A DNA stretch of 64,000 nt from Candidatus Sericytochromatia bacterium. Its GTDB lineage: Bacteria > Cyanobacteriota > Sericytochromatia > UBA7694. Every line of letters starts with the position of its first letter. The first letter of the stretch is position 1. Location of the stretch: contig CAWCRG010000017.1 of NCBI GenBank assembly GCA_963797915.1, positions 299,074-363,073 of the forward strand. Reading direction: 5' to 3'. Positions 6,516 through 61,200 of the stretch are shown here, in pieces. The notes under the pieces are model-generated. The model made no database searches. It was not told the DNA's origin and saw nothing but the letters and a program-made list of their open reading frames with translations. The position numbers and the translations under genes were made by a program.

Positions 6516-6524
6516 GGGGCCGTT

Positions 6525-7250
6525 ATGTTAGTCGCGATCACCTTCGGCTTGCTTTTTTTATGGTTATTGACCGCTGCGGCTGAGCGGGCGCAATTGCGTC
6601 AGAAGACCCTGTTTGAGTGGGTCTTAGACAGCAGTAACTTAACCATCCAGGGCACCCTGATTCCGCTATTGCAAACGGGCCTGCTTTTTGGCGCGCTTGC
6701 TTTTATCTGGCCCGAAGGGCGTGGATTCCTGAACATAGAACCCTTTTGGGGCTTCGCTCTCAATTTTTTTATGGTGGACTATTTATACTACTGGAACCAC
6801 CGTCTCTTGCACCAGCGGTCACTGTTTCCCCTTCATGTGGTGCACCATACGGTAAAGCATATGGATGTGTTTGCCACCTCTCGCAATAGTTTGATCACCA
6901 GCTTTTTTATTGTGTACCTCTGGGTGAATGGCTTTTTATTGTACGTGACGGATCTCAACAGGGGCTTGCTATTGGGCATGAGTGTGTCGGCAGCCCTGGA
7001 TATTTGGAAGCATGCCTCGCTCGGCAAGCGTCACCCTCAGCTTCAGCGCCGTTTGTCTCAGGCGGGAATCATGACGCCACTGGATCACGCCTGGCATCAC
7101 GCTCAGCGTTTAAACAAAAATTATGGGGCCAATCTGAACTGGTATGACAAACTTCACGGCACGTATTATGCCAGTGATACCTATCCAGAACGTATGGGTG
7201 TAAAAACCGCCTTAAGGCCCTGGCAGAAGCTCTTGTTTCCTTTCTCATGA
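6525..7250 (+). CDS. Fatty acid hydroxylase / sterol desaturase superfamily membrane protein
   Basis: Histidine boxes WNHRLLH, HVVHH and HAWHH within a hydrophobic membrane protein, typical of the FA_hydroxylase family (PF04116). Confidence 0.75.
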   Translation: MLVAITFGLLFLWLLTAAAERAQLRQKTLFEWVLDSSNLTIQGTLIPLLQTGLLFGALAFIWPEGRGFLNIEPFWGFALNFFMVDYLYYWNHRLLHQRSLFPLHVVHHTVKHMDVFATSRNSLITSFFIVYLWVNGFLLYVTDLNRGLLLGMSVSAALDIWKHASLGKRHPQLQRRLSQAGIMTPLDHAWHHAQRLNKNYGANLNWYDKLHGTYYASDTYPERMGVKTALRPWQKLLFPFS

Positions 7251-7888
7251 CCCTTTTATCTCGGTTATTGGCGCTCTTTCCTGCATCGGTGGTGCTACTC
7301 ACTGTTCTGGCTCTGGGTCTTGCCCTTAGCCCTGTTTCACTGCTGTGGCGAATCGTGGGGGCTTTGACTTTGCCCTTCATTCTCTATCTTTATCCGGTCA
7401 TGGTTTATCGTTTATTGACTTACTTTAAGCCGTTGAACACCCCTTTGCGTGAAGAATTAACGGGCAACCATTACAGCCACTGGTGGGGCAGTCACCAGGT
7501 GCAGCTGATTTATTTGGTGCTGCCTGTGCTGGAGCGCTTTTTACGGGTGATGCCCGGCGTTTACAGTGCCTGGCTAAGACTCTGGGGCGCAAAGATTGGC
7601 CAACAGGTCTATTGGACGCCCAATGTCGAGGTTCATGATCGCGCATTGCTGCAGCTCGGAGACGGCGTATTACTGGGGCACGAAGTCAAGCTGGTGTCTC
7701 ATGTGGTGATGCCTCATCGACAGCATCTAAGGCTTTACGCCAATCCGATTATTATTGGCGATCGGTGTTTTATTGGTGCGGGTTCTGTCCTGGGGCCGGG
7801 CGTGCGAGTTGATGCACAGCAGGTTTTACCCGTGCGCACCGAAGGGCGCATTAATCAGCGTTTCCAACGCTTTGAGAAAACCCCTTGA
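7247..7888 (+). CDS. Membrane protein with a hexapeptide-like C-terminal segment (possible acyltransferase)
   Basis: Two N-terminal hydrophobic helices. A C-terminal IGDRCFIGAGSVLGPGVRV segment resembles left-handed beta-helix hexapeptide repeats. Start and stop codons overlap the neighbouring genes. Confidence 0.3.
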   Translation: MTLLSRLLALFPASVVLLTVLALGLALSPVSLLWRIVGALTLPFILYLYPVMVYRLLTYFKPLNTPLREELTGNHYSHWWGSHQVQLIYLVLPVLERFLRVMPGVYSAWLRLWGAKIGQQVYWTPNVEVHDRALLQLGDGVLLGHEVKLVSHVVMPHRQHLRLYANPIIIGDRCFIGAGSVLGPGVRVDAQQVLPVRTEGRINQRFQRFEKTP

Positions 7889-9525: not shown

Positions 9526-9931
9526 AAAAGACCCAGAGCACGTGGGGATACTTTTGCATAAAGGCGTCTTCATACCCTTTTTGTGAGCCCTCCACGACCC
9601 GCCAGTTCATGATAATGGCTTCGCGATAGGTGGCAAAAAAAGACGTGATCGTTTTCGAAACCTGTCCATCTTCTGTCCAGTGAGCGACAAATCCTGACCC
9701 GTAAAAAAGAGCCGATAAGCCCAAAAATGGCCAGGGGTTCTTTTCTCTCCAGAGTTTTTTTATTCCCCAGGGGAGAAAGGGTATCGCGAGCCAATACCCG
9801 AAGGCGTGAATAACCTGCACCCGTGGGTTCAGGTGCAGGTAAAGAAAATAGTCTGAAAAGTTTTCAAAATCCGCGGGTCCATAATGGTGAAGGTGTGTTT
9901 GTCGAAAGGCCCGAGTGGTGGTGCTTTTCAT
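9449..9931 (-). CDS. DUF962/Mpo1-like small membrane protein (putative)
   Basis: 160-aa hydrophobic protein with overall resemblance to the DUF962 family. It overlaps the convergent GH3 gene by 77 bp. Confidence 0.35.
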   Translation of the reverse strand: MKSTTTRAFRQTHLHHYGPADFENFSDYFLYLHLNPRVQVIHAFGYWLAIPFLPWGIKKLWREKNPWPFLGLSALFYGSGFVAHWTEDGQVSKTITSFFATYREAIIMNWRVVEGSQKGYEDAFMQKYPHVLWVFFKDAPLPKGIAAADRLAPDNKATDL

Positions 9932-40798: not shown

Positions 40799-43304
40799 AT
40801 GTCAGATCAATCCAGAGAGCGGGATCTTGTATTGGCCCCCAATGAGTATGCCTTTATTTCGGATCAAACCAAAGGCAATATTAATGTGTATGTGGGCCCC
40901 TACAAAACCAGTTTGGCCAATACAGATCAGCCGGTGTTTTTTGATGAGCAGAGCAAACGCTTTGATCGCTGTGGCTTAGAGCAGGCCACGCGGGTTTTTG
41001 CCACCGCCCCTGAAGGATGGTATATCACCCTTAAAAACCCTGCCGGTGACCAAATGCAGCCTAAAAATGGCACGGTTAATAATTTGCCCGATCTGCAGGT
41101 GGGGCATAAGATTAATTTACCCGGACCGGTTTCTTTTGGCTTATGGCCCGGACAAATGGTGAGGGTACTTAAGGGGCATCACCTGCGCTCTAACCAGTAT
41201 TTACTGGTGCGCGTCTATGACGAAGCCTCAGCCCGCAGTAACTGGACACGGGCCGTGATGAAGCTTCAGGGCAATGTGCCCGAAGAGGGGCTGAATCTGA
41301 AAAGCGCTGCTGAAGAAACGTTAAATCTTGGACAGGAAATGGTGATTCGAGGCACCGAGGTTTCTTTTTATATTCCCCCGACCGGTATTGAAGTTGTTAC
41401 TGACAGGCAGGGCGGGTTGGTGAGAGAAGCGGTAACGTTGGAGCGACTTGAGTACTGCATTTTATTGGATGAAGACGGCAATAAACGCTATATTCAGGGG
41501 CCCGATGTGGTCTTTCCTGAGCCCACAGAACGTTTTGTGGAGCGGCAAGTGAGCGGTGTGCTCTGTAAAAAGTTTCGGGCTGTCGAACTCAATGAAAATA
41601 GCGGCATTTACGTGAAGGTGATTGCGCCCTATACGTCTTCTGACGGCGATAAAGTAACCCAGCATGGCGTGGGCGACGAACTGTTTATTACGGGTAAAGA
41701 TCAGATGATTTATTTTCCGCGCCCGGAACATGCGGTGATTAAGTATGGTGCCCAGGATATTCACTATGCGGTGGCCATTCCTGCGGGCGAAGGGCGTTAT
41801 GTGATGGAGCGTAACACCGGGCAGATTAGACTGGTAAAAGGGCCCCACCATGCTGCTGCCTGACCCCCGGCGAGAGGTCATGATACGGCGCGTACTGACC
41901 ACGCCCCAGGTGCGTCTGTGGTTTCCGGGCAATGCCGAAGCGATGGAGTATAATCACCAATTGCAGGAACTCTTAGCCGATGAAAAGGGAGCTTCGGTAT
42001 TGCCCCTTTCTGTACCCCTTGCGCCGACGGGTGGGCCTGCGGATGCAAAATCTCGCAGCGCTGCCAAATCCTCAAAAAGAGAAGTTACTCCCGCGTTGGC
42101 GGGTGAGGACTTTCATCGCAATACGCAGTATACGCCACCTCGGACCATTACCTTAAACACCAAGTATGATGGGGCGGTCGCGGTGTCCATCTGGACTGGC
42201 TACGCGGTGCTCGTGGTAAGTAAAACCGGAGAGCGTAAAGTCGTGGTGGGTCCACAAACCTACCTGCTGGCGTACGATGAAGCCCTGGAGCCCATGGCTT
42301 TATCTACGGGATCTCCCAAAAGCGAGTCTCAATTGCTTAAAACCGTTTACTTGCGGGTGTTGCACAATAAAATCTCCGATAAAATTCGTGTGGAAACGCG
42401 CGATCTGTGCGAGGTAGAGATTCAGCTTTCTTATCGGGTGAACTTTGAGGGCGATTCCCAATACTGGTTTAATGTGGAGAACTATGTCAAGTTTTTGACG
42501 GAGCATATGCGTTCTCGCATTCGCAACGCGGTCAAGCAGGTGGGTGTGGAAGCTTTTTATAGTCAGGCGGCTGATATCTTGCGCGATACCGTGCTGGGAG
42601 TCAGTGACGGACAACGGACCGGCTGCACCTTTGCTGAAAACGGCATGCGGGTGTATGACGTCGAGGTGCTCAATGTCACGCTGGTGGACCAAAGCGTGGA
42701 GCAATTGTTGATTGCCGCGCAACGGCAAGGGGTTGAGCAGACCTTGCAACTCAACGCCGAACGGCGCAAGCTGGACTTTGTGCAGGCTGAAGAGGTCGTC
42801 AAGCGAGAAATGTCTGAAGCCCGCATTCTCACGGAGACTCAGCATCATGATATAGAGCTTGAACGCTTACACCGTCAGCAGGCCTTACAATTGCAGCAGT
42901 TAAAAAGCCAAAGTGAAGCAGAACAAACCCGCCTGCTCGGCGAATTGGCCAATCAAGAGCAAATGAGTGCGGTGCATGAGGCTGAGTTAATGCGAGAGCG
43001 GGTGCGTTTAGAGCAGGAGTTGGCCATGGCTCACGAACGGACGCAGCAGCGTCTGATGCTGATGCAGGGTGAGGTAGAGGCGATGGCCCGCAAAGCAGAA
43101 GCCATTTCACCTGACCTGATTGCTGCTTTACAGGCTTTTGGCGATAAAGCGCTGGCGGAGCGCATGGCGGCATCGATGGGGCCACTCGCCATTCTCGGCG
43201 GCAATAGCGTGGCCGATGTCTTGTCCCAGCTGCTGGGCGGTACCCAGCTCGAACACCTTGTGCGCAAGGCGATGCCCCTCATGGGCCATATTACTGAAGA
43301 CTGA
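40799..43304 (+). CDS. Major vault protein (MVP) homolog, single gene with apparent frameshift near 41845-41865
   Basis: The N-terminus (LVLAPNEYAFISDQTKGNINVYVGPYKTSLANTDQPVFF) parallels the first MVP repeat of eukaryotic MVP ([38 protein letters not shown]). The C-terminal ORF parallels the MVP shoulder/cap-helix region (…VDQSVEQLLIAAQRQGVEQTLQLNAERRKL…). Combined length is about 835 aa. Confidence 0.6.
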
Positions 43305-46638: not shown

Positions 46639-47757
46639 CTAGTTTTGATCCCGAGCGATGCGCGACACTGAGATGTAGGCATTGGGTTTTGACTGGGCCT
46701 GCGCGCCTTTGAAGTTCTGACGGTGTTTAAAAACCGATTCAAACTCCGCAAAAGACACGCTGCTGGAATCATTGGGATTGTAGGGATCCGCCAATAGCAG
46801 GTTATTGTCTTTATCGATGCCTGTTAGCACAACATAATGGCCCGTGTTACCTATTTGATTGGGGTTATTGTCCATAAACTGAGTGAGCAGAATGACTGAG
46901 TTGCCCTGATTCAGCTCGTTTCGCATGCGTTCCAGCATATCGGTGGCGTTACGCATGCCGTCTTTTTTTTCTCGGTGCACTTCTGCTTCAAGCTTACCTT
47001 CCGAGAGTTTCTCTAGACTTTTAGCCATCGGCTCAGGATCGATGGCTCCTGAATTGCTCACACCCATCAGCTTTCGCATTTCGCCGATGCTCTCAATATT
47101 TCCGGCCAGGCCCTGTTCTTTTAGCACCATTAAGGTACTGGTGGGACCACAAGAGGAGCCTGCTTGTTTGTGTAGTCGCGCCTGTTCACCGCTCAGCCTT
47201 CCTGCCTTGGCGGCATCTTTATCCCGGTTATAGCTGCCTTCGCCGTATTTTTTATCGTAATCAGCAAATTGTTTTGTATGCCAATCTTTGTTTGCACCCG
47301 GCTTATAAAAGTCGACGCCCTTTGGATTAAACTTTCCCTGTGCGCGGGCCTGGGCTTCGTTTCGCTCCTGTGGCTCAAGCATCTGCAATGTAGACTGGCT
47401 TAGTTCTCGGGCCAGGGCCTGGTTTTTAACCTGACCTAACGCCTGACTCACTTGTGCATATTCTTTAGGCGAAAGCTTATGGTCTGAAAAAAGCTTTCCC
47501 GTGCGGGTCTTGTCTTCAATGCCTTGAATAAATCCAGCCAGCAGCTGTTTGTCTTCTGGGCTTAAGTTTTCCTGAGCAAGCAATTGCTGTAAATTTTTGC
47601 CCTCGTCTTTTTGCAAGTGTCTGTCCTGAGTTGCCTGCTGAAAGCTTGAGCTTAAACGGGGAGGAATGGTTGTCATGGGTGTTGACGATCTTTCTGAAGA
47701 TATTAAGGGTACGTAGGAATAAACAAAAAAGCGACTTGTCTCAGCTTGAAGATTCAA
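46639..47757 (-). CDS. Peptidase C39-like (papain-fold cysteine peptidase) domain protein
   Basis: The C-terminal domain has a candidate catalytic Cys (QAGSSCGPTSTLMVL) and His (GHYVVLTGID). The N-terminal ~190 aa are charged, low-complexity and coiled-coil-like. Confidence 0.5.
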   Translation of the reverse strand: MNLQAETSRFFVYSYVPLISSERSSTPMTTIPPRLSSSFQQATQDRHLQKDEGKNLQQLLAQENLSPEDKQLLAGFIQGIEDKTRTGKLFSDHKLSPKEYAQVSQALGQVKNQALARELSQSTLQMLEPQERNEAQARAQGKFNPKGVDFYKPGANKDWHTKQFADYDKKYGEGSYNRDKDAAKAGRLSGEQARLHKQAGSSCGPTSTLMVLKEQGLAGNIESIGEMRKLMGVSNSGAIDPEPMAKSLEKLSEGKLEAEVHREKKDGMRNATDMLERMRNELNQGNSVILLTQFMDNNPNQIGNTGHYVVLTGIDKDNNLLLADPYNPNDSSSVSFAEFESVFKHRQNFKGAQAQSKPNAYISVSRIARDQN

Positions 47758-47802: not shown

Positions 47803-48718
47803 CTAATCTATAATTTTTTTGCCGGGATAGATAGTGGCTCCTGGGGGAGGTGTTCCCTCAACGCCCATATTTCCTTTGTCGCCCATAGGAAAGTTAGGCT
47901 TTTGTCCTGGACTGGGCTTCGTTCCGATGGGTGCCTGGCCGGGTTTACCCGTGGGGAAATTGGGTTTATTACCCAGTTCAGGCTTGGGTTTTTGTCCGTC
48001 GTGAATGTGAGCGCCTTGAGGGGGCTTGCCTTCGGTACCCATTTGAGGTTGCGGCTTTTGTCCCTGGCTAATTTGTGCGTCTTTGGGAGGCTTGCCTTCG
48101 GTACCCATTTGAGGTTGCGGCTTTTGTCCCTGTGAATTTGTGCGTCTTGGGAGGTTTACCTTCGGTACCCATTTGAGGTTGTGGCTTTGTGGTAATTTGT
48201 GCGTCTTTGGGAGGCTTGCCTTCGGTACCCATTTGAGGTTGCGGCTTTTGTCCCTGGCTAATTTGTGCGTCTTTGGGAGGCTTGCCTTCGGTACCCATTT
48301 GAGGTTGCGGCTTTTGTCCCTGGCTAATTTGTGCGTCTTTGGGAGGCTTGCCTTCGGTACCCATTTGAGGTTGCGGCTTTTGTCCCTGGCTAATTTGTGC
48401 GTCTTTGGGAGGCTTGCCTTCGGTACCCATTTGAGGTTGCGGCTTTTGTCCCTGGCTAATTTGTGCGTCTTTGGGAGGTTTACCTTCGGTACCCATTGAA
48501 GGCTTGTCGGGAAATTTTTGAGGGGTTTTAAGACTATCACTTTTCACGGGGGTAGATTGAAGGGTGTCTTTCTGGTCAATGGCTGGCTTCTGTGCTTGAG
48601 TGATGTCCTCTTTTTTAATGTCTTTGTCTTTAACTTCTCCCTTTTTCCCGATAGGGAAGGCGTTTGCTGCGCTATTTACTGCTGAAGACAGAGGGCCGGT
48701 ACTCATACTCATACTCAT
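47803..48718 (-). CDS. Lys/Pro/Gln-rich tandem-repeat protein (22-aa repeats MGTEGKPPKDAQISQGQKPQPQ), frame broken within the repeat array
   Basis: ORFs 48068..48718 and 47803..48540 overlap in two frames. The frame changes at a 64-bp variant repeat copy (48100-48163). No signal peptide. Confidence 0.5.
48034..48520. repeat. 66-bp tandem repeat array (about 7.5 copies; one 64-bp and one 60-bp variant)
   Basis: The anchor ggtaccc recurs at 48034, 48100, 48164, 48224, 48290, 48356, 48422 and 48488. Confidence 0.85.
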
Positions 48719-49902: not shown

Positions 49903-50718
49903 ATGATGACGAAGCGTATTTTAATTACCGGGGCCAGTTCAGGCATTGGCGAAGGCACAGCACATTATTTTGCAGCCCAGGGCTGGCAAGTGATAGCCAC
50001 CATGCGCAATCCAGAAGCGGAACCGTTTGATCACGAAAATATTCGCACACTGGCGCTCGATGTGACCGATAAAACGAGTATTCAAAATGCCGTGGCCTTT
50101 GTCAAAGCGGAGTACGGGGGATTAGACGTGGTTCTCAATAATGCAGGTTATGGTGCGGCAGGGCCTTTAGAAGCCGCTACAGACGCACAAATCAAGCGAC
50201 AGTTTGATGTAAATCTCTTTGGCGTGATTGATATAACGCGGGCTTTTCTGCCGATGTTTAGAGCCCAAAAGTCAGGCCTGTTCATTAACATTTCTTCGAT
50301 TGGGGGTTTAATTACGATGCCCATGTTTTCGCTTTATCATGCCACCAAATGGGGGATTGAAGGCTTTAGTGAGAGCTTACGCTATGAACTCAACGGCCTG
50401 GGGATTCAGGTGAAAATTGTGGAGCCGGGTGGTGTGAAAACGGATTTTTCAGGCCGCTCATTGGATATGTTTGATGTCGGTGAACACGCAGATTATCGAC
50501 CCTTTGTGGAGCGTATGCTCGCTAATTTTACACCCGATCGTCAGGCGGCTTACTCTACTGCTGAAGATATGGCCAAAGTGATTTTTACAGCGGCCACCGA
50601 CAACTCAGATCAAATGCGTTATGTGGCGGGTCCTGATGCCCAGGCCCTATGGGAGCGGCGTCAAGCTGTTCCTGTAGAGACCTTTATGAGCGAAATGCGC
50701 CACAATATGTTGGGTTAA
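49903..50718 (+). CDS. Short-chain dehydrogenase/reductase (SDR) family oxidoreductase
   Basis: TGASSGIG cofactor motif, NNAG, and catalytic YxxxK (YHATK). Confidence 0.8.
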   Translation: MMTKRILITGASSGIGEGTAHYFAAQGWQVIATMRNPEAEPFDHENIRTLALDVTDKTSIQNAVAFVKAEYGGLDVVLNNAGYGAAGPLEAATDAQIKRQFDVNLFGVIDITRAFLPMFRAQKSGLFINISSIGGLITMPMFSLYHATKWGIEGFSESLRYELNGLGIQVKIVEPGGVKTDFSGRSLDMFDVGEHADYRPFVERMLANFTPDRQAAYSTAEDMAKVIFTAATDNSDQMRYVAGPDAQALWERRQAVPVETFMSEMRHNMLG

Positions 50719-50802
50719 CGCTTAAAGGGAAAGCCGCTGGACTTGAGCAAATGCTCTGGAGTCTAGCGGCTTTGATGGGCTCATCTTAAAACGGTTAAGA
50801 TC

Positions 50803-51744
50803 TTAAAGGTGACGGCCCACAATGGCGATGACGGTCACTTTCACCTGATCGCGCATGTCTTCGTCGAGTACGGTGCCAAAAATAACGTTGGCATCGGGGT
50901 TGACCGTATTGTAAATGACTTCGGCGGCTTCGTTAATTTCATGGAGCGAAACATCCTGGCCGCTGGTGATGTTAAAGACCACACCGGTGGCGCCGTCAAT
51001 GGAGTATTCCAGCAGTGGGTTCTCGATGGCTTTTTTGACAGCGTCTACAGCGGGATTTTCCACGTCCATAGAGCTGACGCCCACACCCATGACACCCACA
51101 CCGGCGTCGCTCATAATGGCGCGCACATCAGCAAAATCGACGTTGATCAGGCCGGGGATGTTAATAATGTCAGAAATGCCCTGAATGGCGAGCAATAAAA
51201 CATTGTCGACTTCTTGAAACGCATTTTTGACGGCCAGGCCGCCTTTCATGCTCTGTAATAAGCGATCGTTAGATACCACAATCAGGGTATCTACAGCGTT
51301 CAGCATGCGTTGAATGCCAGCATCGGCCTGTTCTTTACGGCGCTTGCCTTCAAACATAAATGGGCGGGTCACAACGCCTACGGTCAGTGCGCCCATGGAC
51401 TTTGCCATTTCAGCGAGAGCCGGGCCTGCGCCGGTACCGGTACCACCACCCATACCGCAGGTGACAAAAACCATGTCGGTGTCTTGCAAGTAGTGGCTGA
51501 GTTCTTCGCGACTTTCTTCGAGGGCCTTCATGCCCACTTCGGGGTTTCCGCCGGCGCCGAGGCCGCGGGTGCTTTTGCCGCCAATTTGAATGCGTTCCTG
51601 AGCGTCGACCATTGAAAGGGCCTGGGCATCGGTGTTGACAGCAATAAACTCGACCCCTTCAAAGGCGGCAGCGCGCATATGATTAATCGTATTTCCGCCG
51701 CTGCCGCCAACGCCGAAAACTTTAATGCTAACCAGTGGTGTCAT
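50803..51744 (-). CDS. FtsZ paralog comprising only the core GTPase and C-terminal domains (no linker or C-terminal tail)
   Basis: FGVGGSGGN, tubulin signature [12 protein letters not shown] and T7 loop NVDFADV. 313 aa ending …VIAIVGRHL, with 85 bp to the next gene. Confidence 0.8.
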
Positions 51745-51842
51745 GTAACTGATTCCTTATGTGTACAAAAATAGTTGAAAATATTTATTGGAAGTGTGAA
51801 ATAAATATATCGAGTGTCTCTTGCTCACAAGCATAGCACTCC

Positions 51843-53030
51843 TTAACGGGGTTGCTTGGTGTCCAATGCACAGTTCTCACCATTCCACTCGATATCCAGA
51901 GTGCTGGCAGAAAGCAGGTCAGTACCTGCTTTTTTGGCTCGCTGCAGGGTGCGAAAAAGCATGCCAAACTGTTGCCAGAAGGGGCCAGGGTCTTGCCATT
52001 TCATGAGGGGATCCCGCGCTCGCCAGAGGTCCTTTAAAATGCGGGGGGTGTGTAAGAGATCTTGTGGAATGGCGTAGCCTATCATGGCAATACTCAGGGC
52101 CACCGGTTGTCGAGCCAGGGGACGCACCGTGCGGCTTGCGGTTTGCGGCAAAAAGGCCCGTGGTAGTTCATCTTCTTTTTCAAACAAAAAAGTGCCGGTG
52201 GTGGTGCGTGGGTTGCACTCAATGGCGTAATACAGGCCCTTATACAAAATAAAGTCAAAGGAAATTTGACCCGTATAGCCAAAATAGTGCACAATGGCGC
52301 GCACAATATGCTCAATTTCGGGAATATCGACGGATTCAAAGTAAATGGTGGCTCCAGGCCCCGCAGTGTAGACGGTGGGATACACGCTGTGGGCCGTCAG
52401 CTCGCCGTTACGCGCCACGCTATAAGAGCAAAACTGAGGGCCGTCCAAATACTCTTGTAAGACCCAGGGGCTTTGGGGTGTGGGCTGAATATTTTGGTAC
52501 ACCTTATGCATGGGGGCATTAATATACACCGCACTGGCAAAACGAGAAAACTCGGCTTTGAGTACATATTGGCCCCATTCCGGTAAACGGGTTTTGAGTT
52601 GGTCTCGGTTACCAATGCGCTCGGTGGCGGGAGCCGGTAGCTTGAGCCGTTGCAAGAGTTGGTTGAAGCGGTATTTGCTGTGCAGTTCATGGAGACAGGC
52701 CATGTCGGCGGTAAACACTTCACAGCCTTTGCCCGTGCCTTCTAAGGTTTCGCGATGCTGGGCAATATAAAAGGTTTCTTCGCAGGTGGGAATGAGGAGA
52801 TCAATCTCGCGATCCACAATAATTTCTTGTAAAGCCCGAATATAGGCGGCGGTGTGTTGGCGCGGGGCGGGTACGGTAAAGTTTTTAGCGCAGGCCCGCG
52901 AAGCCCCGGCGAGGTTAGGCTGAAGGCTTTCGGCCACATCACAGCGGTGTCCCGCTTCGGCAAAGCGACGAATCAACGCTAAAGTGGCCGGACTGCGCCC
53001 GCCGGTAAACAAAATCTTGTGTGACGGCAT
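51843..53030 (-). CDS. ATP-grasp domain protein (carboxylate-amine ligase-like)
   Basis: 395 aa with ATP-grasp-like central and C-terminal segments (…LQEYLDGPQFCSYSV… ISFDFIL…ECNPR). Confidence 0.5.
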   Translation of the reverse strand: MPSHKILFTGGRSPATLALIRRFAEAGHRCDVAESLQPNLAGASRACAKNFTVPAPRQHTAAYIRALQEIIVDREIDLLIPTCEETFYIAQHRETLEGTGKGCEVFTADMACLHELHSKYRFNQLLQRLKLPAPATERIGNRDQLKTRLPEWGQYVLKAEFSRFASAVYINAPMHKVYQNIQPTPQSPWVLQEYLDGPQFCSYSVARNGELTAHSVYPTVYTAGPGATIYFESVDIPEIEHIVRAIVHYFGYTGQISFDFILYKGLYYAIECNPRTTTGTFLFEKEDELPRAFLPQTASRTVRPLARQPVALSIAMIGYAIPQDLLHTPRILKDLWRARDPLMKWQDPGPFWQQFGMLFRTLQRAKKAGTDLLSASTLDIEWNGENCALDTKQPR

Positions 53031-54073
53031 CAGTACACCAGCACCAGCCCACCCAGCGAGAGCCCGGCACCGGTGCCCAATAAACAGACCCGATCCCCAC
53101 GGGCAATGCGGTTTTGGCTGATGGCGTCATAGAGCGCCATGGGAATGGAGGCGGCAATGCAATTGCCGTGGGTGGCCAGATGATCAATATATTGGTCTTC
53201 GCGCCAGCGAAACAAACGGCGGGCGGTCTCAATGGCTCCTTTGCTGGCCTGATGGGGCACAATAAACTCACAGTCTCTGAGTCCAAAGCCTAAAGGTTTA
53301 AACAGCGTTTTTAAGAACGGCCGCAATTTTTTAAAGGCCATGCCAAGCACTTTGGGCCCATCCATGTGAAAGGTAAAGTCTGTGGGGTTGGCGCCGGCGG
53401 TGGCGATGGCGTTGGGGTGGAGGACGTTACCGCCCCCTTTGACGTAGGTGTACATTGCGCCGTCGCCATAGGTTTCTAAGCGACTCTGCAACAGCGCGCT
53501 GGATTCGCCCTCGGGAGCGATACCCACAATGGCCGCTGCTGCCCCATCGCCGAGCAGGGTGGCACTCTCTTTTTCTGCTGGATTTAACGACCGGGAGGAA
53601 ATTTCGGCAGAGACAATGGCAATGCGCCGATAACGACCCGAAGCCAGAAAGCTGGCCGCCACTTCTAAAGCGGCAATAAAGCTCAGGCAGGTGGCATCGA
53701 CGGTAAAGCTGGGAGTCCCCGAGTTTCCTTTGCCCATGGCCCGTTGAATCAAGCAGGAGGTGTCTGGAATGGGGTAGTCATAAGAGCCAGAGGCGTTAAT
53801 AATCAGGTCGAGTTCTTCGTAAGCTAAACCCGCATTTTGAAGGGCTTCGGTCAGGGCCTGGGCACCGAGATCGGCGTTGCTTTCGTATTCAGCCCAGTGG
53901 CGAACTTCAACCCCCGACTTTTGTAAAATCCAGCCGGGCTTTAGGCCCATCTGGGTCTCCAGGGTCGAAGAATGCACGGTGCGTGGCGGCAGGTACTTAC
54001 CCATGCCAAGAATCTTGAGGGGAATGGACGGTTGCTCGTGGGGGGGCTGTATGCTCATCGTACGCTCAGTCAT
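53030..54073 (-). CDS. 3-oxoacyl-ACP synthase III (FabH-like KAS III)
   Basis: Catalytic Cys (DATCLSFIAAL), His (VPHQAS) and Asn (HGNCIAASIP) triad at the canonical spacing. Confidence 0.75.
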   Translation of the reverse strand: MTERTMSIQPPHEQPSIPLKILGMGKYLPPRTVHSSTLETQMGLKPGWILQKSGVEVRHWAEYESNADLGAQALTEALQNAGLAYEELDLIINASGSYDYPIPDTSCLIQRAMGKGNSGTPSFTVDATCLSFIAALEVAASFLASGRYRRIAIVSAEISSRSLNPAEKESATLLGDGAAAAIVGIAPEGESSALLQSRLETYGDGAMYTYVKGGGNVLHPNAIATAGANPTDFTFHMDGPKVLGMAFKKLRPFLKTLFKPLGFGLRDCEFIVPHQASKGAIETARRLFRWREDQYIDHLATHGNCIAASIPMALYDAISQNRIARGDRVCLLGTGAGLSLGGLVLVY

Positions 54074-55704
54074 TACTTTAGGCGATATACGCTGTAATCA
54101 ATATCAGGGAAGATATTGTCTAAATACTCTACTTTGCCCAACCATTCGGGGTCGATTTCATTGCGGTAAATCCCCTGATAGAGTTGGTTAAAGCGGTGCA
54201 GGTGGGTTTTTACCCGCTTCACCGCATACTCCACCATGGTTCCCGTTTTCATAATAAACGGCCAATCGGAGCTCTGGGCCAGCAAGAGCTCACGGGCGGC
54301 CTGGTTAAGGGCGCGCTCAGTCTTGCCTTCGGTCACCGGGAAGCGGTAGGCCAGTTCGATCATGCGCTCGGTGGCCTTGTGCAGGTGGCGGTAAATTTTG
54401 TCGTTGGTTTCATTGAGCCAGAAGCTATTATACCCGTTGGCTCCCCAGCTCGATGGCGAAGGTTCTGCCATTTGTTGGGTGGGGTTATTGAGTAAATACT
54501 CGTAGGGCGTGGTCATTTTGTAGGTGGACTGGTTATGGGCGGCTTTGCGCATGACCAAATTGAGCCATTCGGGGCCTTCAAACCACCAGTGACCGTAGAG
54601 TTCTGCATCGTAGGGAGACAGTACCAGCGGTTTGTGTCCGTTGAAGACGTGGGCTAAATTGGTGATCTGCTCGGCCCGGCTACGAACAAAATGGTTGGCG
54701 TGGATATCGCTTTTTTGGCGCGCCATTTCGAGATTGTAGGGCTGCTTCTCGGCGGTTTTGCCCGTGATGCGGTAATACTTAATGCCGGTGTTTTTGCGGG
54801 TGCCGTCGGGCTGGACATAATCTTTAATATAGTCAAAGTCAAGATCGTAGCCTATGTCGCGGTAATACTCTCTAAAGTAATGATCGCCAGGGTAGCCTAT
54901 TTCTGAACTCCACACCTGCTCTGAGGACTCACGGTCTCGGCAAAAAACAGCCACACCGGTATCGGGGCAAAAAATGGGGGCGTAAGCGCCGTAGCGAGAG
55001 CGGGGCGTTGAGTTGACCACGCCGTGGGTGTCGGTAAAAAAGAATTCAATGCCCGCCGCTTTAATAAAGCGATCGGCACCGGGGTAAAAGCCGCACTCCG
55101 CCAGCCAAATGCCCCGTGGGCTGCGGTCAAAGTGCTTTGTATAACTCTGGGCCGCCACCTCAATTTGGGCCTGCACGGCCTCAGGGTACATTTGAAACAG
55201 CGGTAAAAAGCCGTGGGTGGCACAGCAGGTGACAATTTCAAGACAGCCGTAATCCTGAAATTTTTTGAAACCGTTGACCAAGTTGCGGTGATAGGTATCG
55301 TTAAACAGGGTATAGGTGGCCTTAAAGCGGTCGGCGTAATACAGCGCCAGCGGGTGAAACTGGCTATCCCCTCGGGTACGCACCACTTCTTTTTCGGCCA
55401 GCTCCACCAGACGGCCAATGTATACGAGGTAGCGATCCTGAAGCAAAGGATCCGCCAGCATGGCCAGCAGTGACGGGGTCATGGTCATGGTTAAGCGAAA
55501 ATCAATGCCGTCTTTGACCAGGTTTTCAAACATCACCAATAAAGGCACGTAGGTTTCGGTAATGGCCTCATAAAGCCAGTGTTCTTCGAGAAAGTAGTCA
55601 TACTCCGGGTGGCGTACATAGGGCAGATGGGCGTGAAGCACCATGGCGTGATAGCCAATGGGATCAATCTCTAAAGCGGGGGATTCAAAGCTTTTCTGTA
55701 TCAT
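54073..55704 (-). CDS. Glycoside hydrolase family 57 protein (alpha-glucan branching enzyme/amylopullulanase-like)
   Basis: N-terminal GYHAMVLHAHLPYVRHP (GH57 HxHxPY region) and a conserved C-terminal helical domain. The likely start at 55704 overlaps the upstream stop (ATGA); the ORF extends further, to 55857. Confidence 0.65.
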   Translation of the reverse strand: MIQKSFESPALEIDPIGYHAMVLHAHLPYVRHPEYDYFLEEHWLYEAITETYVPLLVMFENLVKDGIDFRLTMTMTPSLLAMLADPLLQDRYLVYIGRLVELAEKEVVRTRGDSQFHPLALYYADRFKATYTLFNDTYHRNLVNGFKKFQDYGCLEIVTCCATHGFLPLFQMYPEAVQAQIEVAAQSYTKHFDRSPRGIWLAECGFYPGADRFIKAAGIEFFFTDTHGVVNSTPRSRYGAYAPIFCPDTGVAVFCRDRESSEQVWSSEIGYPGDHYFREYYRDIGYDLDFDYIKDYVQPDGTRKNTGIKYYRITGKTAEKQPYNLEMARQKSDIHANHFVRSRAEQITNLAHVFNGHKPLVLSPYDAELYGHWWFEGPEWLNLVMRKAAHNQSTYKMTTPYEYLLNNPTQQMAEPSPSSWGANGYNSFWLNETNDKIYRHLHKATERMIELAYRFPVTEGKTERALNQAARELLLAQSSDWPFIMKTGTMVEYAVKRVKTHLHRFNQLYQGIYRNEIDPEWLGKVEYLDNIFPDIDYSVYRLK

Positions 55705-57413
55705 GAGCGGAAAACCCCACTTCCTGAGGCCAGAGAGAGGGCCGCGTTGGCTGTGGGGGCTGGAGGCCAGCTTTCCCAGGGGTGAACATGCTGCTGACGC
55801 TGGGGCTGCAAGCTGCCCGACCAGTAGTGTTCTGAGGCACCCTGAGGCCGTAGCCAATGTATTTGTTCACTGCCACCGGGCTGGGTTTGCCAGCGCACCA
55901 TGCGCTCGCTACCGGCCTGTCTAAACCAGCTAAACAGACTTGCACCCAGAAATTTCTGAAGCATGGCGTCACTGGCACCTAAGGGCAGGTACTCTGTGAT
56001 TTCCCAGGGCCAAATGGCATAAGAGATCATCAGGGCCTGATCGTAAGGGTCGGTAATCCATTGCTCAAACATCATGGGCAAGGCATCGGTGGGGAAATCA
56101 CTAAACCAGCGCACATCGTAAGGTAAGCCGAGCCAGTTTTTGATCTCACGGCCTCCGGCTTCGCTGAGCCAGCTTTCGGTTTCTTGCTGATTAAAGCCTC
56201 GGGTGCTCTGATCGCCCTGGGCGTTGACGGTTGCGGGTCTTTCGAACGTCATGGCTTCAGTGCGAGGTGCCTCAGGCTGCTTTAAGAAGACGGCACGGCT
56301 GGGGGCCGGTCTCCAGTTGACCGCTGGAGGCGTGGTGTGTGTGTGTTGCTCTGGCGCAGGGGCTGTGGGGGGCTCCGGTACAAAGGCCCGCGGAGCGGCT
56401 CTTGCTATGGCGGGTGTTGCCACGGGACTTGCCGGTGGCGTGGGGTTAAACTGGATGGATGTGGGCTGATAGGTTTCAAAAAATGCGCCCACCAGAGACT
56501 CGGCAGCTGCGTTCTCGCGGTCCCCAGCGGGTAGGGTGAGTGGGCGATGGGTGTCTTCTAGCAGGCGATCGGTGGCCACCGGACGGGAGGGCACAAACTG
56601 GGCGAATTTGTCTTGACGAATGGGGGAAACGGTGGCGGGTGGAATATAGACGGTGTTGGAGCGGAGCAAGACCTCAAAGCCCTTTGCATGGCGATACCCC
56701 AGCTCAATGCAAAGATTGCGGTCGTGCTGTTGGGTGTTGAGATACCATTCCTTAATGAGGGGGTTACAGGGCTCAAGGGTGGTGGAATGGGCGTTGCTGC
56801 CGTTATACACAATGCCGGTGACGTCAGAGACCCTGAGCATAAACACATCGGGGGCCTGGGCCAAAACGCCTTCGACCTCAACCTGACGGGCGGTGTCAAA
56901 ATCCCAGTAGACATAAAAACGGTACGGGTCAATGGGCAGGGCCACCAGCTCGTTTTCGGCGTAGTAGTCGGGTAGCTCGATCTCTTCGTCTTTTTCTAAG
57001 ATAAAGTCTTCGTGGGTGCCTTTGTGTACAAACCGGGAGGGGCTAAATAAATAGCGGAGTCGGTGTTCTTCAATGGCTTTGCGCTCGGCGGCCTGACGGT
57101 CTTCTACGGCCTCTTCGAGGGCGCGAAGGTTTTTAACCGGCGGGGTAACGGGTGGGGTGACGGGTCTCTCTGGTGTCACAGTAAGCGTAGGCGCTGCACT
57201 TTTGGGAGTGGGTTCAGCCGTGAATTGATTCACCAGGCGTTGAATTTCGGCCTGGGTATTTTCGGGGTGACGCTGGGTACAATCGCGCGTAATGCCACGG
57301 CGCAGTTTGGAGGGGGATTTGCGGTAATAGTGCTTGATTTTAAGGTGACGTGCAATTTGGCGCAGCACCCGACTGCTAAGGGCACGCAATGGATCTTTTG
57401 GTGGGGTGCTCAT
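55701..57413 (-). CDS. DUF4912-like protein with Pro-rich linker regions
   Basis: LPIDPYRFYVYWDF segment typical of DUF4912, which is often adjacent to GH57 genes. A long Pro/Thr/Ala-rich low-complexity region follows. Confidence 0.45.
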   Translation of the reverse strand: MSTPPKDPLRALSSRVLRQIARHLKIKHYYRKSPSKLRRGITRDCTQRHPENTQAEIQRLVNQFTAEPTPKSAAPTLTVTPERPVTPPVTPPVKNLRALEEAVEDRQAAERKAIEEHRLRYLFSPSRFVHKGTHEDFILEKDEEIELPDYYAENELVALPIDPYRFYVYWDFDTARQVEVEGVLAQAPDVFMLRVSDVTGIVYNGSNAHSTTLEPCNPLIKEWYLNTQQHDRNLCIELGYRHAKGFEVLLRSNTVYIPPATVSPIRQDKFAQFVPSRPVATDRLLEDTHRPLTLPAGDRENAAAESLVGAFFETYQPTSIQFNPTPPASPVATPAIARAAPRAFVPEPPTAPAPEQHTHTTPPAVNWRPAPSRAVFLKQPEAPRTEAMTFERPATVNAQGDQSTRGFNQQETESWLSEAGGREIKNWLGLPYDVRWFSDFPTDALPMMFEQWITDPYDQALMISYAIWPWEITEYLPLGASDAMLQKFLGASLFSWFRQAGSERMVRWQTQPGGSEQIHWLRPQGASEHYWSGSLQPQRQQHVHPWESWPPAPTANAALSLASGSGVFRS

Positions 57414-57577: not shown

Positions 57578-58348
57578 ATGTGTTTAGTCGTCTGGGGATG
57601 GAAAGTCCATCCTGAATATCCGCTTATTTTTATCGCCAATCGCGATGAAGCTTATCAACGTGAAACGCAACCCCTGGCTCCCTGGAATACCCAACCCGAG
57701 ATTTATGCAGGGCAAGACAAAGTCGCTGGCGGCACCTGGGCGGGCATGGCGCGCTCGGGGCACTTTGCCGCCGTCACGAATGTGCGTAGCACCACCGAAG
57801 TCAATCTTCCAGAAGATCCACAGCGGCTGAGTCGCGGCATGTTGGTGCGTCAGTTTTTAGAGAGTCGGCAAGATCCCCTCACCTATATCGCCAAAGCCGA
57901 AAACGAGAAACATCGCTACGCTGGCTTTAATCTATTGGTGGGCGATATGCAGCAGCTCATGTATTACTCCAACCACAGCGAGCGCCCGCGCTCTTTGCGT
58001 CGCGGCATTTATGCACTGAGCAATGGGGTATTGAGTGATTCCTGGCCCAAAGCCGAAGAAAGCAAGGTGGCCTTTACCCGTGCTGTCTCTTGCCGCACCC
58101 CGTTTTTTGACGACCTTTTTGCCATCATGCAAAATGAGCGCACCTATCCGACCCATATGCTGCCGAGCACCGGCCTGGCCCCTGAGGTCGAAACCGCATT
58201 GTCAGCGGCCTTTGTTAAAACGCCAAACTACGGTACCCGTTCTACCCTGCTCATGGTGGTCAACCATAAGCAAGAAGTGACGATCGAAGAGCGGGTGTAC
58301 GATGCCGGAGCCGAAGGTCAACAGAGCTATTCTTTTAGTCTGAATTAA
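57578..58348 (+). CDS. NRDE/TANGO2 family protein
   Basis: N-terminal MCLVVWG… and IANRDE motif that names the family (PF05742). Confidence 0.7.
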   Translation: MCLVVWGWKVHPEYPLIFIANRDEAYQRETQPLAPWNTQPEIYAGQDKVAGGTWAGMARSGHFAAVTNVRSTTEVNLPEDPQRLSRGMLVRQFLESRQDPLTYIAKAENEKHRYAGFNLLVGDMQQLMYYSNHSERPRSLRRGIYALSNGVLSDSWPKAEESKVAFTRAVSCRTPFFDDLFAIMQNERTYPTHMLPSTGLAPEVETALSAAFVKTPNYGTRSTLLMVVNHKQEVTIEERVYDAGAEGQQSYSFSLN

Positions 58349-58461: not shown

Positions 58462-61200
58462 TTGATCTGTTTTAAACATTCCGCGTATGCGTTCGTGTTG
58501 TTCTGTTTCGTTCTGGCTGGCTGTCAGCCGCCAACACAACACAACACAACACAACACAACACAACACAACCTTCTCTTTTAAGCTCGATCCCTCAAATAC
58601 GGTTTTCTAAAGATCGTGTGGCCAATCGCAAAGCCATTATGGAGCATATTCGCTCCACTCAGCCCTTTAGCAACCCCATTGGCCCCGATAGTAATATTTA
58701 TCAAGAGTACTTAAAATACCGTTCCGGTGATTTTAATGTGAAATATTCCTGGGGGCCTGACAGCTATACCGGCGAATTTACCTCTAGAGGTTGTCGCATG
58801 AGCTTTGAGGACGATCCCACTGTCTATCGTGATTATTGGAGTATCCCTTATCACCGTCGCTGTCAAGTGCGCGAGACGGCGAGTGGTGATTGGGGAGTAA
58901 TTGCCGCCTGTGACAGCATTAAAGGATATGAAGGCAGTGGTTACCCCATTTACGATGTGCGCTTAACCTGTAGCAAAAACGCGGGGGGTAGCTGTGCGCT
59001 CTTTAACTTTGCCGCTTCTTTTCACACCTGCGAAACCACTGACGATGACGGTAACTCGGGCTGCTTTGCCCCGCTTAAAAACTCAGATGGTACATCGGTG
59101 CTAGATGCTGGAGGCTCACCGGTTTTGACGCAAGTGGCTTGTGACGGTGACGGTGACAATGAACCGACGGATCCCGATAATACCCCCGTTTTATTTGCGA
59201 TTAGAAATCGCAATCCCGTTTACGGCATGGTGCCCGGAGATGAAGATAATCAGCGGGGGAGTGTCTCACCCGCTGATCAAAACGGCGCTTATGACGCTGT
59301 TGACTTAGACGTCATTGACGATCGCAACGTGGGTTGGTTTTTAAGTGTTGATTTTAATGACCAAGAACTGCTGCGTGTTAATGGCACCGGCTCTCAATCT
59401 AGCATTGACTGGAACCCGAATAATCTGGCCATCTCTGATAATGGCATGGCCCGTATTGCTTTGATTCACGCGGTGACCCAGCGGGTCTTTAATTACAAGG
59501 TAAGGGTAGACAATGATCCTCCGGTGATTAGCGATGTGAGCGTGATGCCGACACAAAATGCTGATGTGGGAATCATTCGCGCTAAGGTTTTAGAGCGTAA
59601 CACAAGAAATTATCAGACTGGGATCAACGAGAGTCGTTTTCAGGTGCATTTCGATTCAGAGGCTCAGCAGCTTCTGGCACCCAGCGTCTCTTTTGACAGC
59701 GAAACGGGCGAGTTTAGTGCTGAATTCAGTGGTTACAGTGCCTATCATAGTGGGCAACAGGGCAGCCCCGAAAGTGAGTTTGGTTTTGAGCTGATCGCCG
59801 AAGACTATGTGGGCAACACGGCCTCTAGCCGCCCGCCCAAAGACAATCTCAAGCTTTCGATCCCCGACAACACTTGGTTCTCGCCCCACGAAGACAGCAC
59901 CAAAAAACAGGTAAGCTTTGACGTGCTGGATGTGGACAACACCGGAGCCAGCTGGACCGTTGAAATTCGCAAAAACGGCCAGGTGTACAAAACCTACACT
60001 GGATCCGGCAGCCAAACCCTGAGCTGGGACGGCCTGTTTGAGGGCGCTGCTGTGTCCGAAGGCAAGTACAATATCGTGCTGAAGAACGCGAAGCAGCCGG
60101 GGAGGGAGCGCGAGCGGGATTTTGCGCAGGTGGGTGTGGATATGAGCCCGCCGGAGATCACTTATCAATTACTAAAAACTTCTCAAGACGATCCCACTAA
60201 AGCCAAAATTAAAATTACTGCTCACGATCCCCAAACTGGTGTAAAAGAGCTGACCTTAAATCAAGTTGCTCAAAATATAATTCCTGGAGTTCCTATTATT
60301 CAGGAGTTGGAAACAGAAACGATTCTGGAAAAGAAATATATTGCAATCTATAACATAATTTATCCCACATTCACTCCTACAGAAAACAGTTTTAAAATAA
60401 CCAATACTCCATCTGACTCCATTGATGATCTACTTGATTATTTAGACAAAACACAAGTACTGGGGGAAGTCACTTCTAGGAGTAACATAAATATCCAGTC
60501 TTCTAAACCGATTACTTATAAAGGCTTAAGACCCTTAAAGTGTCAATCATATAAAGCCAACGGTACTTCAGGAAAAAGTCAATTTGAGCTAAGCTTAATG
60601 TATGATTTCGATCCTGAAGGTCCTGATTTGACTGCTATTATTTTACCTACTCAGAGCAACTATCAACCATTGGGACCTGGAGATGTAATGACGAGTGTTA
60701 TAGATGTTCCTGGTGTGAGCTCCGGTACAAATCTCAAATTGCAATTCCCTTTTTCGCAACAAAAGCAAGCAAAAATAAATGAAAAAAGAAATGCTGCAAA
60801 CGCCTTGTTTACGGAAACGAAAATTCTTAGATCTCAAGGGAAAGTAGCAAATGCTTTAGGGAAAGAAAATAGAGCAAACCTCTTGTCTGTAGATGCTCAA
60901 GTTTTAATTAATCTTGCGAACGATGAAGTAATAAGATTTGACCAAGCTACTAATGCTGCTTATTTGACTAATAGAGGTGTTTCATATAATCAAATGTACA
61001 ACCAGTATTTGTCTAATAGTCCAACTTTAGCCAGAGTTATGTCAGATATGTCTAAGTTTAAGCTGTCTTCCAATTTAAAGCTTAACAATAAAGGCTACGC
61101 TCAGTTGTTATTTTCAGGAATAAATTTGGATAGAATAAGAGACTCGCTTCAAGGTAGTGGTTCAGGCTCTTTTGAGAATTACTATAAGAAATGGTGGTGA
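58462..61200 (+). CDS. Large modular surface/secreted lipoprotein (912 aa) with a GC-typical body and an AT-rich C-terminal region
   Basis: Lipobox FVLAGC at residues 16-21. An AACAC repeat lies immediately after the lipobox Cys. Asp/Gly-rich calcium-binding-like segments. A ~105-bp block at 60056-60160 is repeated downstream. GC drops sharply after about 60165. Confidence 0.6.
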   Translation: MICFKHSAYAFVLFCFVLAGCQPPTQHNTTQHNTTQPSLLSSIPQIRFSKDRVANRKAIMEHIRSTQPFSNPIGPDSNIYQEYLKYRSGDFNVKYSWGPDSYTGEFTSRGCRMSFEDDPTVYRDYWSIPYHRRCQVRETASGDWGVIAACDSIKGYEGSGYPIYDVRLTCSKNAGGSCALFNFAASFHTCETTDDDGNSGCFAPLKNSDGTSVLDAGGSPVLTQVACDGDGDNEPTDPDNTPVLFAIRNRNPVYGMVPGDEDNQRGSVSPADQNGAYDAVDLDVIDDRNVGWFLSVDFNDQELLRVNGTGSQSSIDWNPNNLAISDNGMARIALIHAVTQRVFNYKVRVDNDPPVISDVSVMPTQNADVGIIRAKVLERNTRNYQTGINESRFQVHFDSEAQQLLAPSVSFDSETGEFSAEFSGYSAYHSGQQGSPESEFGFELIAEDYVGNTASSRPPKDNLKLSIPDNTWFSPHEDSTKKQVSFDVLDVDNTGASWTVEIRKNGQVYKTYTGSGSQTLSWDGLFEGAAVSEGKYNIVLKNAKQPGRERERDFAQVGVDMSPPEITYQLLKTSQDDPTKAKIKITAHDPQTGVKELTLNQVAQNIIPGVPIIQELETETILEKKYIAIYNIIYPTFTPTENSFKITNTPSDSIDDLLDYLDKTQVLGEVTSRSNINIQSSKPITYKGLRPLKCQSYKANGTSGKSQFELSLMYDFDPEGPDLTAIILPTQSNYQPLGPGDVMTSVIDVPGVSSGTNLKLQFPFSQQKQAKINEKRNAANALFTETKILRSQGKVANALGKENRANLLSVDAQVLINLANDEVIRFDQATNAAYLTNRGVSYNQMYNQYLSNSPTLARVMSDMSKFKLSSNLKLNNKGYAQLLFSGINLDRIRDSLQGSGSGSFENYYKKWW
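58533..58570 (+). repeat. Pentanucleotide microsatellite (AACAC)x7.6 inside the 5' coding region
   Basis: Read directly: aacac aacac aacac aacac aacac aacac aacac aac, encoding (QHNTT)n just after the lipoprotein signal peptide. Confidence 0.9.

Follow-up and report, generated by a model that had tools for sequence, protein, structure and literature searches.

What use does a cell have for an FtsZ that has no tail? The question is raised by a gene that we call ftsZ-S, found in a 64,000-nucleotide stretch of DNA from a Candidatus Sericytochromatia bacterium (assembly GCA_963797915.1, contig CAWCRG010000017.1, positions 299,074 to 363,073), which we refer to as the window. The Sericytochromatia are uncultured, non-photosynthetic relatives of the cyanobacteria. 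An earlier note on this DNA had described the gene as a tail-less FtsZ paralog that lies outside the division and cell wall (dcw) cluster, and this description has proved to be genuine. The answer that we favour, with a probability of roughly 0.6, is that FtsZ-S is a tether-less subunit that co-assembles with canonical FtsZ, that its gene forms an expression unit of its own, and that the genes upstream of it belong to unrelated modules. The gene and the group of genes in which it stands are as follows, with positions counted within the window.

50803–51744, minus strand: ftsZ-S, a tail-less FtsZ paralog of 313 amino acids (open reading frame, ORF; Pfam; TIGR00065)
50803–57413, minus strand: five co-directional ORFs, in the order DUF4912, glycoside hydrolase family 57 (GH57), beta-ketoacyl-acyl carrier protein synthase III (KAS III), ATP-grasp, FtsZ

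The product of ftsZ-S matches both FtsZ domains in Pfam, PF00091 (Tubulin, 162 bits) and PF12327 (FtsZ_C, 101 bits), and it scores 397 bits against the ftsZ model TIGR00065, where the cutoff is 295 and the alignment covers model positions 18–321 of 353. The GMGGGTGTG signature and the T7 loop INVDFADV can both be read in the translation, which confirms the hallmarks (GGGTGTG, NxDFADV and the C-terminal domain) on which the gene was first recognized. Residues 4–307 align end to end with the crystallised FtsZ cores of B. subtilis, S. aureus and M. tuberculosis, and the protein terminates six residues later, directly after the last core strand. The linker and the C-terminal peptide had been reported as missing and indeed they are, as are an N-terminal extension and any N- or C-terminal amphipathic segment. 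Because the match to the crystallised cores runs end to end, FtsZ-S is, judging by its sequence, the polymerising GTPase core and nothing else. A set of 192 canonical FtsZs has 169 columns with a conservation of 90% or more; FtsZ-S retains 130 of these, and it carries 13 fixed substitutions at canonically invariant positions, none of them in the T7 loop.

Is the missing tail a peculiarity of this one gene? The closest relatives of FtsZ-S form about 27 protein clusters of 309–323 amino acids that are 72–98% identical, and the named ones belong to Candidatus Sericytochromatia, apart from one HGW-Melainabacteria and one Obscuribacterales protein. Beyond this family come full-length FtsZs of cyanobacteria and Firmicutes, with identities that fall to about 60%. 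Every one of the 24 members that we compared stops 0–11 residues past the sequence ...IAIVGK, and the C-terminal pentapeptide -VGKHL is invariant in the members of 313 amino acids. With a stop that is shared in this way, the lack of a tail is a trait of the family and not an accident of assembly. Mean identity within the family is 78.8%, compared with 82.1% within the canonical set, and this figure, together with the 130 retained columns, argues that FtsZ-S is under strong constraint. A scan of species-representative genomes with family-specific peptides recovered ftsZ-S in nine Sericytochromatia/Blackallbacteria assemblies, along with unrelated FtsZs. Paralogs from the same genome did not surface in that peptide-based scan, and paralogy was shown by the individual look-ups described below.

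No alphaproteobacterial protein is found among the 120 best matches of FtsZ-S. The plasmids of PLSDB hold no close homolog (the best identity is <60%, and the matches listed reach about 58%), nor is there a record from Rhizobium, Sinorhizobium or Agrobacterium among the top 15 PLSDB matches, in which identity goes down to 49%. A plasmid origin of FtsZ-S was rejected for want of a close PLSDB homolog. Our literature search returned no paper linking Sericytochromatia or Melainabacteria to an FtsZ paralog, and the family is apparently undescribed, as far as the searchable literature shows. Tail-less FtsZ paralogs are already known as a kind; FtsZ-S is an independent, class-wide instance of it.

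The paralogy is evident once the canonical gene has been located. Canonical Sericytochromatia FtsZ is a protein of about 440–456 amino acids with a long, disordered, Pro/Gln-rich linker, a tail of about 100–140 residues and the end sequence LELPPFLRPHR. The gene for one such protein, which we label P0042, comes after mraY-murD-ftsW-murG-murC-murB-ftsQ. Used as a query, P0042 leads to a clade named Blackallbacteria/Sericytochromatia, and the genes of P0148, P0154 and P0031 stand in the same dcw context, P0031 being from a sample other than that of the window's gene. The earlier note had proposed looking for a full-length ftsZ elsewhere in the genome. Such a gene is present in the lineage, and both copies occur together in the assembly GCA_015272195.1, with the short P0012 (313 amino acids) on JACYMC010000023.1 and the canonical P0154 (453 amino acids, dcw) on JACYMC010000173.1; the tetranucleotide correlation of these two loci is r = 0.96. 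Three sequencing runs, among them SRR12283634 and SRR12283635, likewise yielded both the short P0023 and the canonical P0042. The window and the dcw locus of JBETAW01 have a tetranucleotide correlation of 0.93, which is a hint, though no proof, that a canonical ftsZ is present in the window's own species as well.

A neighbour-joining tree with 200 bootstraps joins canonical Sericytochromatia FtsZ and cyanobacterial FtsZ as sisters (200/200). The FtsZ-S sequences are monophyletic (200/200) and branch off by a long stem outside the clade that these two form. The core of FtsZ-S is about 57% identical to all other FtsZs, whereas the canonical Sericytochromatia and cyanobacterial proteins share 72%. 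From the long stem and this low identity we read FtsZ-S as an old or fast-diverged paralog. A side observation concerns the canonical genes themselves. In the dcw clusters of four loci (L010, L057, L058 and L143, in our numbering of the loci compared) ftsZ directly follows ftsQ without an intervening ftsA, an arrangement shared with cyanobacteria, and the canonical C-terminal peptide in these loci is LELPPFLRPHR or DLDIPPFLQRYR.

What would such a protein do? Set against the canonical dcw-encoded FtsZ, FtsZ-S has the same GTPase and FtsZ_C domains, the GGGTGTG and NVDFAD motifs, and the Cys of ...TCGMGGG that it has in common with canonical Sericytochromatia FtsZ and that several of the ~60% matches also carry. 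What it lacks are the linker, the C-terminal peptide, the N-terminal extension and the dcw context. A pair of FtsZs that differ in their tails is also found in the chloroplasts of plants and green algae. There, FtsZ1 and FtsZ2 descend from the cyanobacterial lineage, only one of them carries the C-terminal tethering peptide, and the two form heteropolymers in which the tail-less subunit alters the dynamics. Plant FtsZ1 keeps a linker and arose from plastid FtsZ after endosymbiosis, whereas FtsZ-S has no linker of any kind and branches outside the clade of cyanobacterial and canonical Sericytochromatia FtsZs.

The second comparison is with the truncated FtsZs of the Alphaproteobacteria. Agrobacterium tumefaciens FtsZ1 (Atu_4673), Rhizobium/Sinorhizobium meliloti FtsZ2 and Magnetospirillum gryphiswaldense FtsZm resemble FtsZ-S in that each has a complete core that is cut before the linker. 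They too are encoded away from the dcw cluster and coexist with a tailed, dcw-encoded FtsZ, which is essential there. In A. tumefaciens, the tail-less FtsZ1 forms copolymers with canonical FtsZ, on which it depends for its localisation (bioRxiv 10.1101/412759), and the truncated paralogs of R. meliloti and M. gryphiswaldense, as well as the chloroplast FtsZ1/FtsZ2 pair, are summarised in the same work. The resemblance is one of architecture only. Unlike the alphaproteobacterial proteins, FtsZ-S forms a clade of its own with an independent origin, it is class-wide at about 79% mean identity, and the function that we propose for it is drawn by analogy.

By that analogy, FtsZ-S would bind and hydrolyse GTP and assemble head-to-tail. 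Alone, it should be unable to reach the membrane or the partners that bind the tail, and lacking any membrane access of its own it would act by co-assembly with canonical FtsZ. In the resulting mixed filaments, FtsZ-S would dilute the tethers and tune the dynamics of the Z-ring. Its gene would be expressed from its own upstream promoter or operator and would end at its own hairpin.

The conservation of a tether-less second FtsZ implies that the division machinery of Sericytochromatia probably runs on two FtsZs. Chloroplasts (FtsZ1/FtsZ2) and some Alphaproteobacteria came to such an arrangement independently, and FtsZ-S would add a third natural experiment, again independent, that bears on why cells retain a tail-less subunit. 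The compact core of 313 amino acids could be compared in vitro with its canonical partner. There are also consequences for the curators of annotations. The gene is labelled ‘cell division protein FtsZ’ and could pass for the sole or the orthologous ftsZ, and the adjoining ATP-grasp enzyme should not be taken for an analogue of tubulin ligases.

Several points weigh against co-assembly and a self-contained gene. Polymerisation and co-assembly are ascribed to FtsZ-S by likeness to the systems above. The canonical ftsZ of the window's own genome is deduced from a related assembly and a tetranucleotide similarity of 0.93, and metagenome-assembled genomes can be chimeric. At about 57% core identity, FtsZ-S stands further from canonical FtsZ than the partners in most co-polymerising pairs do from each other, and with this divergence and its 13 fixed substitutions it could instead form homopolymers with a separate role. 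The order of the genes upstream is kept while the ATP-grasp protein diverges to 59–63% identity, which may reflect weak selection for adjacency. Lastly, co-assembly does not explain the replication-initiator-like neighbour that ftsZ-S has in other lineages. The last two points are taken up below, after the evidence for a separate expression unit, which consists of the following features.

51830–51871, minus strand: ftsZ-S upstream element, putative promoter or operator (alignment of eight upstream regions, including those of L017 and L019)
51859–51871, minus strand: box 1 of the element, GTGCATTGGACAC, within the last 11 codons of the ATP-grasp ORF
51830–51838, minus strand: box 2 of the element, TGCTATGCT, resembling an extended -10
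about 50730–50773, minus strand: stable, terminator-like hairpin (RNA fold of the 84-nucleotide spacer between convergent genes)

The consensus of the upstream element is GTGCAT[TC][GT]GACAC, followed after about 23 nucleotides by TGCTAYRCT. In the clade of at least 84% identity, all 12 loci have exactly one exact match to box 1, located 85–127 nucleotides 5′ of the ATG, and L017 and L019, whose upstream genes differ, are among these 12. Box 1 is unique in the window, and one chance match was encountered elsewhere among 143 loci. As the element is conserved whatever gene stands upstream, we regard it as a putative promoter or operator belonging to ftsZ-S itself. A scan of the 98-nucleotide spacer for the sigma-70 consensus gave no match. 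The alternative that the element is conserved as an RNA structure was rejected, as RNAalifold gave -1.9 kcal/mol without covariation and Rfam had no match anywhere in the window. No terminator was detected between the ATP-grasp gene and ftsZ-S, and read-through from the former is therefore possible. The end of the ATP-grasp ORF is itself variable: in L001, L003 and L059 it comes 11 codons earlier than in L016, L018 and the window, where the ORF goes on with …ENCALDTKQPR (51843–51875). This extension runs through box 1, so that coding sequence overlaps the putative regulatory site.

At the other end of the gene, the region 50715–50810 folds on the minus strand into a hairpin of -29.6 kcal/mol (z = -5.06), and none of 200 shuffled sequences is equally stable. 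A simple terminator scan did not call this hairpin, as it has no T-run. A stable hairpin in this position, after the stop codon of ftsZ-S, indicates that the 3′ end of the gene is genuine.

The remaining members of the group lie upstream of ftsZ-S.

51843–53030, minus strand: ATP-grasp enzyme, PRK06849-like (NF005315, Pfam, AlphaFold2/Foldseek)
53030–54073, minus strand: KAS III (FabH-like) condensing enzyme (Pfam ACP_syn_III and ACP_syn_III_C, PRK07204)
54073–55704, minus strand: GH57 alpha-1,4-glucan branching enzyme, 543 amino acids (Pfam Glyco_hydro_57 and BE_C)
55701–57413, minus strand: DUF4912 protein, 570 amino acids, its middle part proline-rich (Pfam DUF4912, 91 bits)

Do these genes form a functional unit with ftsZ-S, as had been proposed? 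All five ORFs are present on the minus strand as first described. The tight coupling of the upstream four was also correctly seen, and the junctions read ATGA (an overlap of 4 nucleotides), TAATG (1 nucleotide) and TGATG (1 nucleotide). The spacers needed a small correction: 98 nucleotides, not 99, separate the ATP-grasp gene from ftsZ-S, and 84, not 85, separate the stop codon of ftsZ-S from the convergent short-chain dehydrogenase/reductase (SDR) gene that ends at 50718. Translational coupling is thus confined to the first four genes. The overlap of 4 nucleotides between the DUF4912 and GH57 genes is also found in L001 and L003. The likely start of the GH57 gene is the ATG at 55704 and not the TTG upstream at 55857, a choice based on the ATGA overlap and on the product of 543 amino acids called in L060.

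The order of all five genes recurs in the window, L016, L018, L001, L003/L004 and L060, which means that 6–7 genomes have the linkage; at least 7 others do not. In the Sericytochromatia loci, GH57 and BE_C were taken from Pfam-annotated gene calls, while the GH57 of L016 and L018 rests solely on a tblastn with an off-frame GH57 query, the identities from which are meaningless. Only the trio of KAS III, ATP-grasp and ftsZ-S is found in L059 (assembly JACYMC01). In that locus the trio is preceded not by GH57 and DUF4912 but by lgt and the gene for a radical SAM protein (4030–5364) that has a Zn_ribbon_HMPTM domain. The order in L017, a sister of the window's group in 198/200 bootstraps, is RPA-like (replication initiator protein A), HtrA, peroxiredoxin and ftsZ-S, then yceD and plsX. 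Other genes than KAS III and ATP-grasp lie upstream of ftsZ-S in L019, and in the family members of 79% identity or less the gene stands alone in unrelated contexts. The idea of a five-gene functional unit is not supported, as the adjacency is absent from L017, L019 and the members at or below 79%, and ftsZ-S has an upstream element of its own. The four upstream genes look like two unrelated modules, DUF4912 with GH57 and KAS III with ATP-grasp, that happen to abut ftsZ-S in this subclade.

Could FtsZ-S have left cell division altogether? It might be a stand-alone cytomotive filament with another job, for example the positioning or segregation of DNA together with the RPA-like protein, comparable with the TubZ and RepX systems of plasmids. 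In the 79% clade (L005, 8424–9782; L020–L024, about 8430–9800), the gene for this protein (PF10134; about 450–460 amino acids, with about 60% identity) is the divergent upstream neighbour of ftsZ-S, and in L017 it is located 2.3 kb upstream of ftsZ-S (6273–7655), which makes seven loci. Its presence both in the 79% clade and in L017 renders the history of the ftsZ-S neighbourhood non-parsimonious, and it hints at an ancestral pairing of the two genes. The long separate branch of FtsZ-S, the fixed changes at canonical positions and the lack of both a tail and a dcw context would also suit a filament of this type. However, FtsZ-S scores as a bona fide FtsZ and not as a TubZ, and the RPA-like neighbour is missing from the window, L001, L003, L016, L018, L019, L059, L006 and L008. 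With dnaX, plsX and yceD close by and lengths of up to 543 kb, the contigs that carry ftsZ-S give the impression of chromosomal DNA, and the PLSDB matches noted above, all at <60% identity, include no close relative. On balance we consider such a role unlikely. Also unlikely is a broader proposal in which FtsZ-S is a dedicated tether-free cytomotive filament and not an accessory of the divisome, working either with the RPA-like protein in the positioning of DNA or replicons, or after being modified or recruited by KAS III and the ATP-grasp enzyme. The earlier note had likewise raised a specialised cytoskeletal paralog tied to glycan or lipid metabolism; the paralog itself is possible, but for the metabolic tie there is nothing beyond local synteny.

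The ATP-grasp enzyme deserves a closer look, as it had been suggested to act on FtsZ-S in the manner of a tubulin-tyrosine ligase (TTL). In a coupling of this kind, FtsZ-S would depend functionally on the ATP-grasp enzyme and KAS III, for example through ligation or acylation of the C-terminus -VGKHL as a replacement for the tether. This would fit with the invariance of that pentapeptide in the members of 313 amino acids, with the lack of a detectable terminator between the ATP-grasp gene and ftsZ-S, and with the order KAS III-ATP-grasp-ftsZ-S, which persists in six loci (the window, L016, L018, L001, L003 and L059) while the ATP-grasp protein diverges to about 60% identity.

The classification of the enzymes points elsewhere. 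The ATP-grasp protein aligns over its full length with NF005315 (PRK06849) at 345 bits, where the cutoff is 406; its NCBIfam matches are to PRK06849 and to carbamoyl-phosphate-synthase-like models, and its Pfam matches are limited to weak ones with ATP-grasp_3 and PylC-like_N (E ≤ 0.01). At the same threshold the TTL profile (PF03133) is not matched in Pfam, and a comparison of the sequence with PDB chains gave nothing significant. An AlphaFold2 model of the protein reaches a mean confidence (pLDDT) of 92. The top 50 Foldseek matches of this model in the PDB comprise 2pn1, which is a carbamoyl-phosphate-synthase-like ATP-grasp, as well as L-amino-acid ligases, PurK, PurD, biotin carboxylase, carbamoyl phosphate synthetase and PylC, and no TTL is among them. 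The modelled fold thus resembles the small-molecule carboxylate-amine ligase type and not TTL. KAS III, in turn, aligns over its full length with NF005541 (PRK07204) at 333 bits, with a cutoff of 402, and the Cys-His-Asn catalytic triad is seen in its translation (ATCLSF, PHQAS, GNC). By these scores, the two proteins of the window appear to be relatives, and not equivalogs, of PRK06849 and PRK07204.

Homologs of the ATP-grasp protein are found in Chloroflexota, Bacteroidota and Paenibacillus, among others. We surveyed the neighbourhoods of such homologs in 80 metagenomic loci (L063–L142, 8 kb), 67 of which have enough upstream sequence to be informative. KAS III lies immediately upstream, on the same strand, in 50 of these 67, and FtsZ, GH57 or DUF4912 within 8 kb of the homolog in none of the 80. 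The pair in the window is full-length and has the same order and coupling as in those 50 loci. Unlike them, it scores below the equivalog cutoffs, is flanked by GH57 and ftsZ-S, and, as elsewhere in the Sericytochromatia, has none of the accessory genes of the cassette described below. In L063, from a Blackallbacteria-like sister lineage, the place after the pair is taken by an OleD-like reductase. Furthermore, L017 and L019 share the C-terminus and the upstream element of ftsZ-S but do not have these neighbours. We consequently regard a coupling of FtsZ-S to the two enzymes as very improbable. The TTL-like role fails with it, for want of a TTL profile, by the fold neighbours and by the 0/80 loci with FtsZ. 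The earlier note had held that its reading would be refuted by a confident classification as a metabolic ligase with a known small-molecule substrate, together with genes that are not co-transcribed; the classification comes close to this, short of a known substrate.

In the metagenomic loci, KAS III and the PRK06849-like ATP-grasp belong to a widespread and apparently uncharacterised cassette that also encodes an SDR of the OleD-like 2-alkyl-3-oxoalkanoate-reductase type, a lactonase-like hydrolase of the metallo-beta-lactamase fold, an adenylating enzyme related to F390 synthetase (TIGR02304), an unannotated family of about 380 amino acids and sometimes a Rieske oxygenase; examples are L078 (7010–12297) and L119 (7022–10132). 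These enzymes are reminiscent of olefin or beta-lactone (Ole-type) chemistry, and the gene content points to the biosynthesis of a lipid-like small molecule. A literature search on the KAS III/ATP-grasp/F390-related cassette found nothing.

Least credible is the view that ftsZ-S is the sole ftsZ of its genome, truncated in sequencing, or else a duplicate on its way to becoming a pseudogene. Only the short length and the lack of dcw neighbours speak for such an artefact or decaying copy. It is refuted by dozens of independent assemblies that give proteins of identical length, by the clean stop codon and the hairpin behind it, by a convergent SDR gene that occupies the downstream frames, by the canonical ftsZ genes of the lineage, and by a family identity of 72–98% with intact catalytic motifs.

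Some observations remain on the wider locus. The flanks of the group in the window hold TetR, SDR and TANGO2 genes, as identified with Pfam, and no dcw or ftsA genes were seen there near ftsZ-S, whose immediate neighbours are the ATP-grasp and SDR genes; this agrees with the context first given for the gene. The GH57 protein matches PF03065 with 128 bits and PF09210 (BE_C) with 146 bits. Against the NCBIfam models for branching enzymes of the Thermus and Thermococcus types it scores 328–351 bits, below their cutoffs of 920–1000. The DUF4912 protein gave no match to plasmids, and a literature search on DUF4912 turned up nothing useful.

Divergent from the group lies the gene for a bacterial TANGO2-family protein (57578–58348, plus strand; 223 bits). 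It is followed on the same strand by an ORF of 912 amino acids (58462–61200) with a lipoprotein-like N-terminus and no Pfam match. On the other side, a unit of 66 nucleotides is repeated 7.3 times at 48023–48497 with 93% match. Translated within an ORF that has no Pfam match (48068–48718, minus strand), it gives a repeat rich in Pro, Gln and Lys (KPQPQMGTEGKPPKDAQISQGQ). This ORF adjoins the gene for a Peptidase_C39-like protein (46639–47757, minus strand). Further away, at 41850–43304 on the plus strand, the window encodes a bacterial protein of 484 amino acids that resembles the major vault protein (MVP), with a major-vault-protein shoulder domain (104 bits), a Vault repeat and an SPFH/Band 7 domain.

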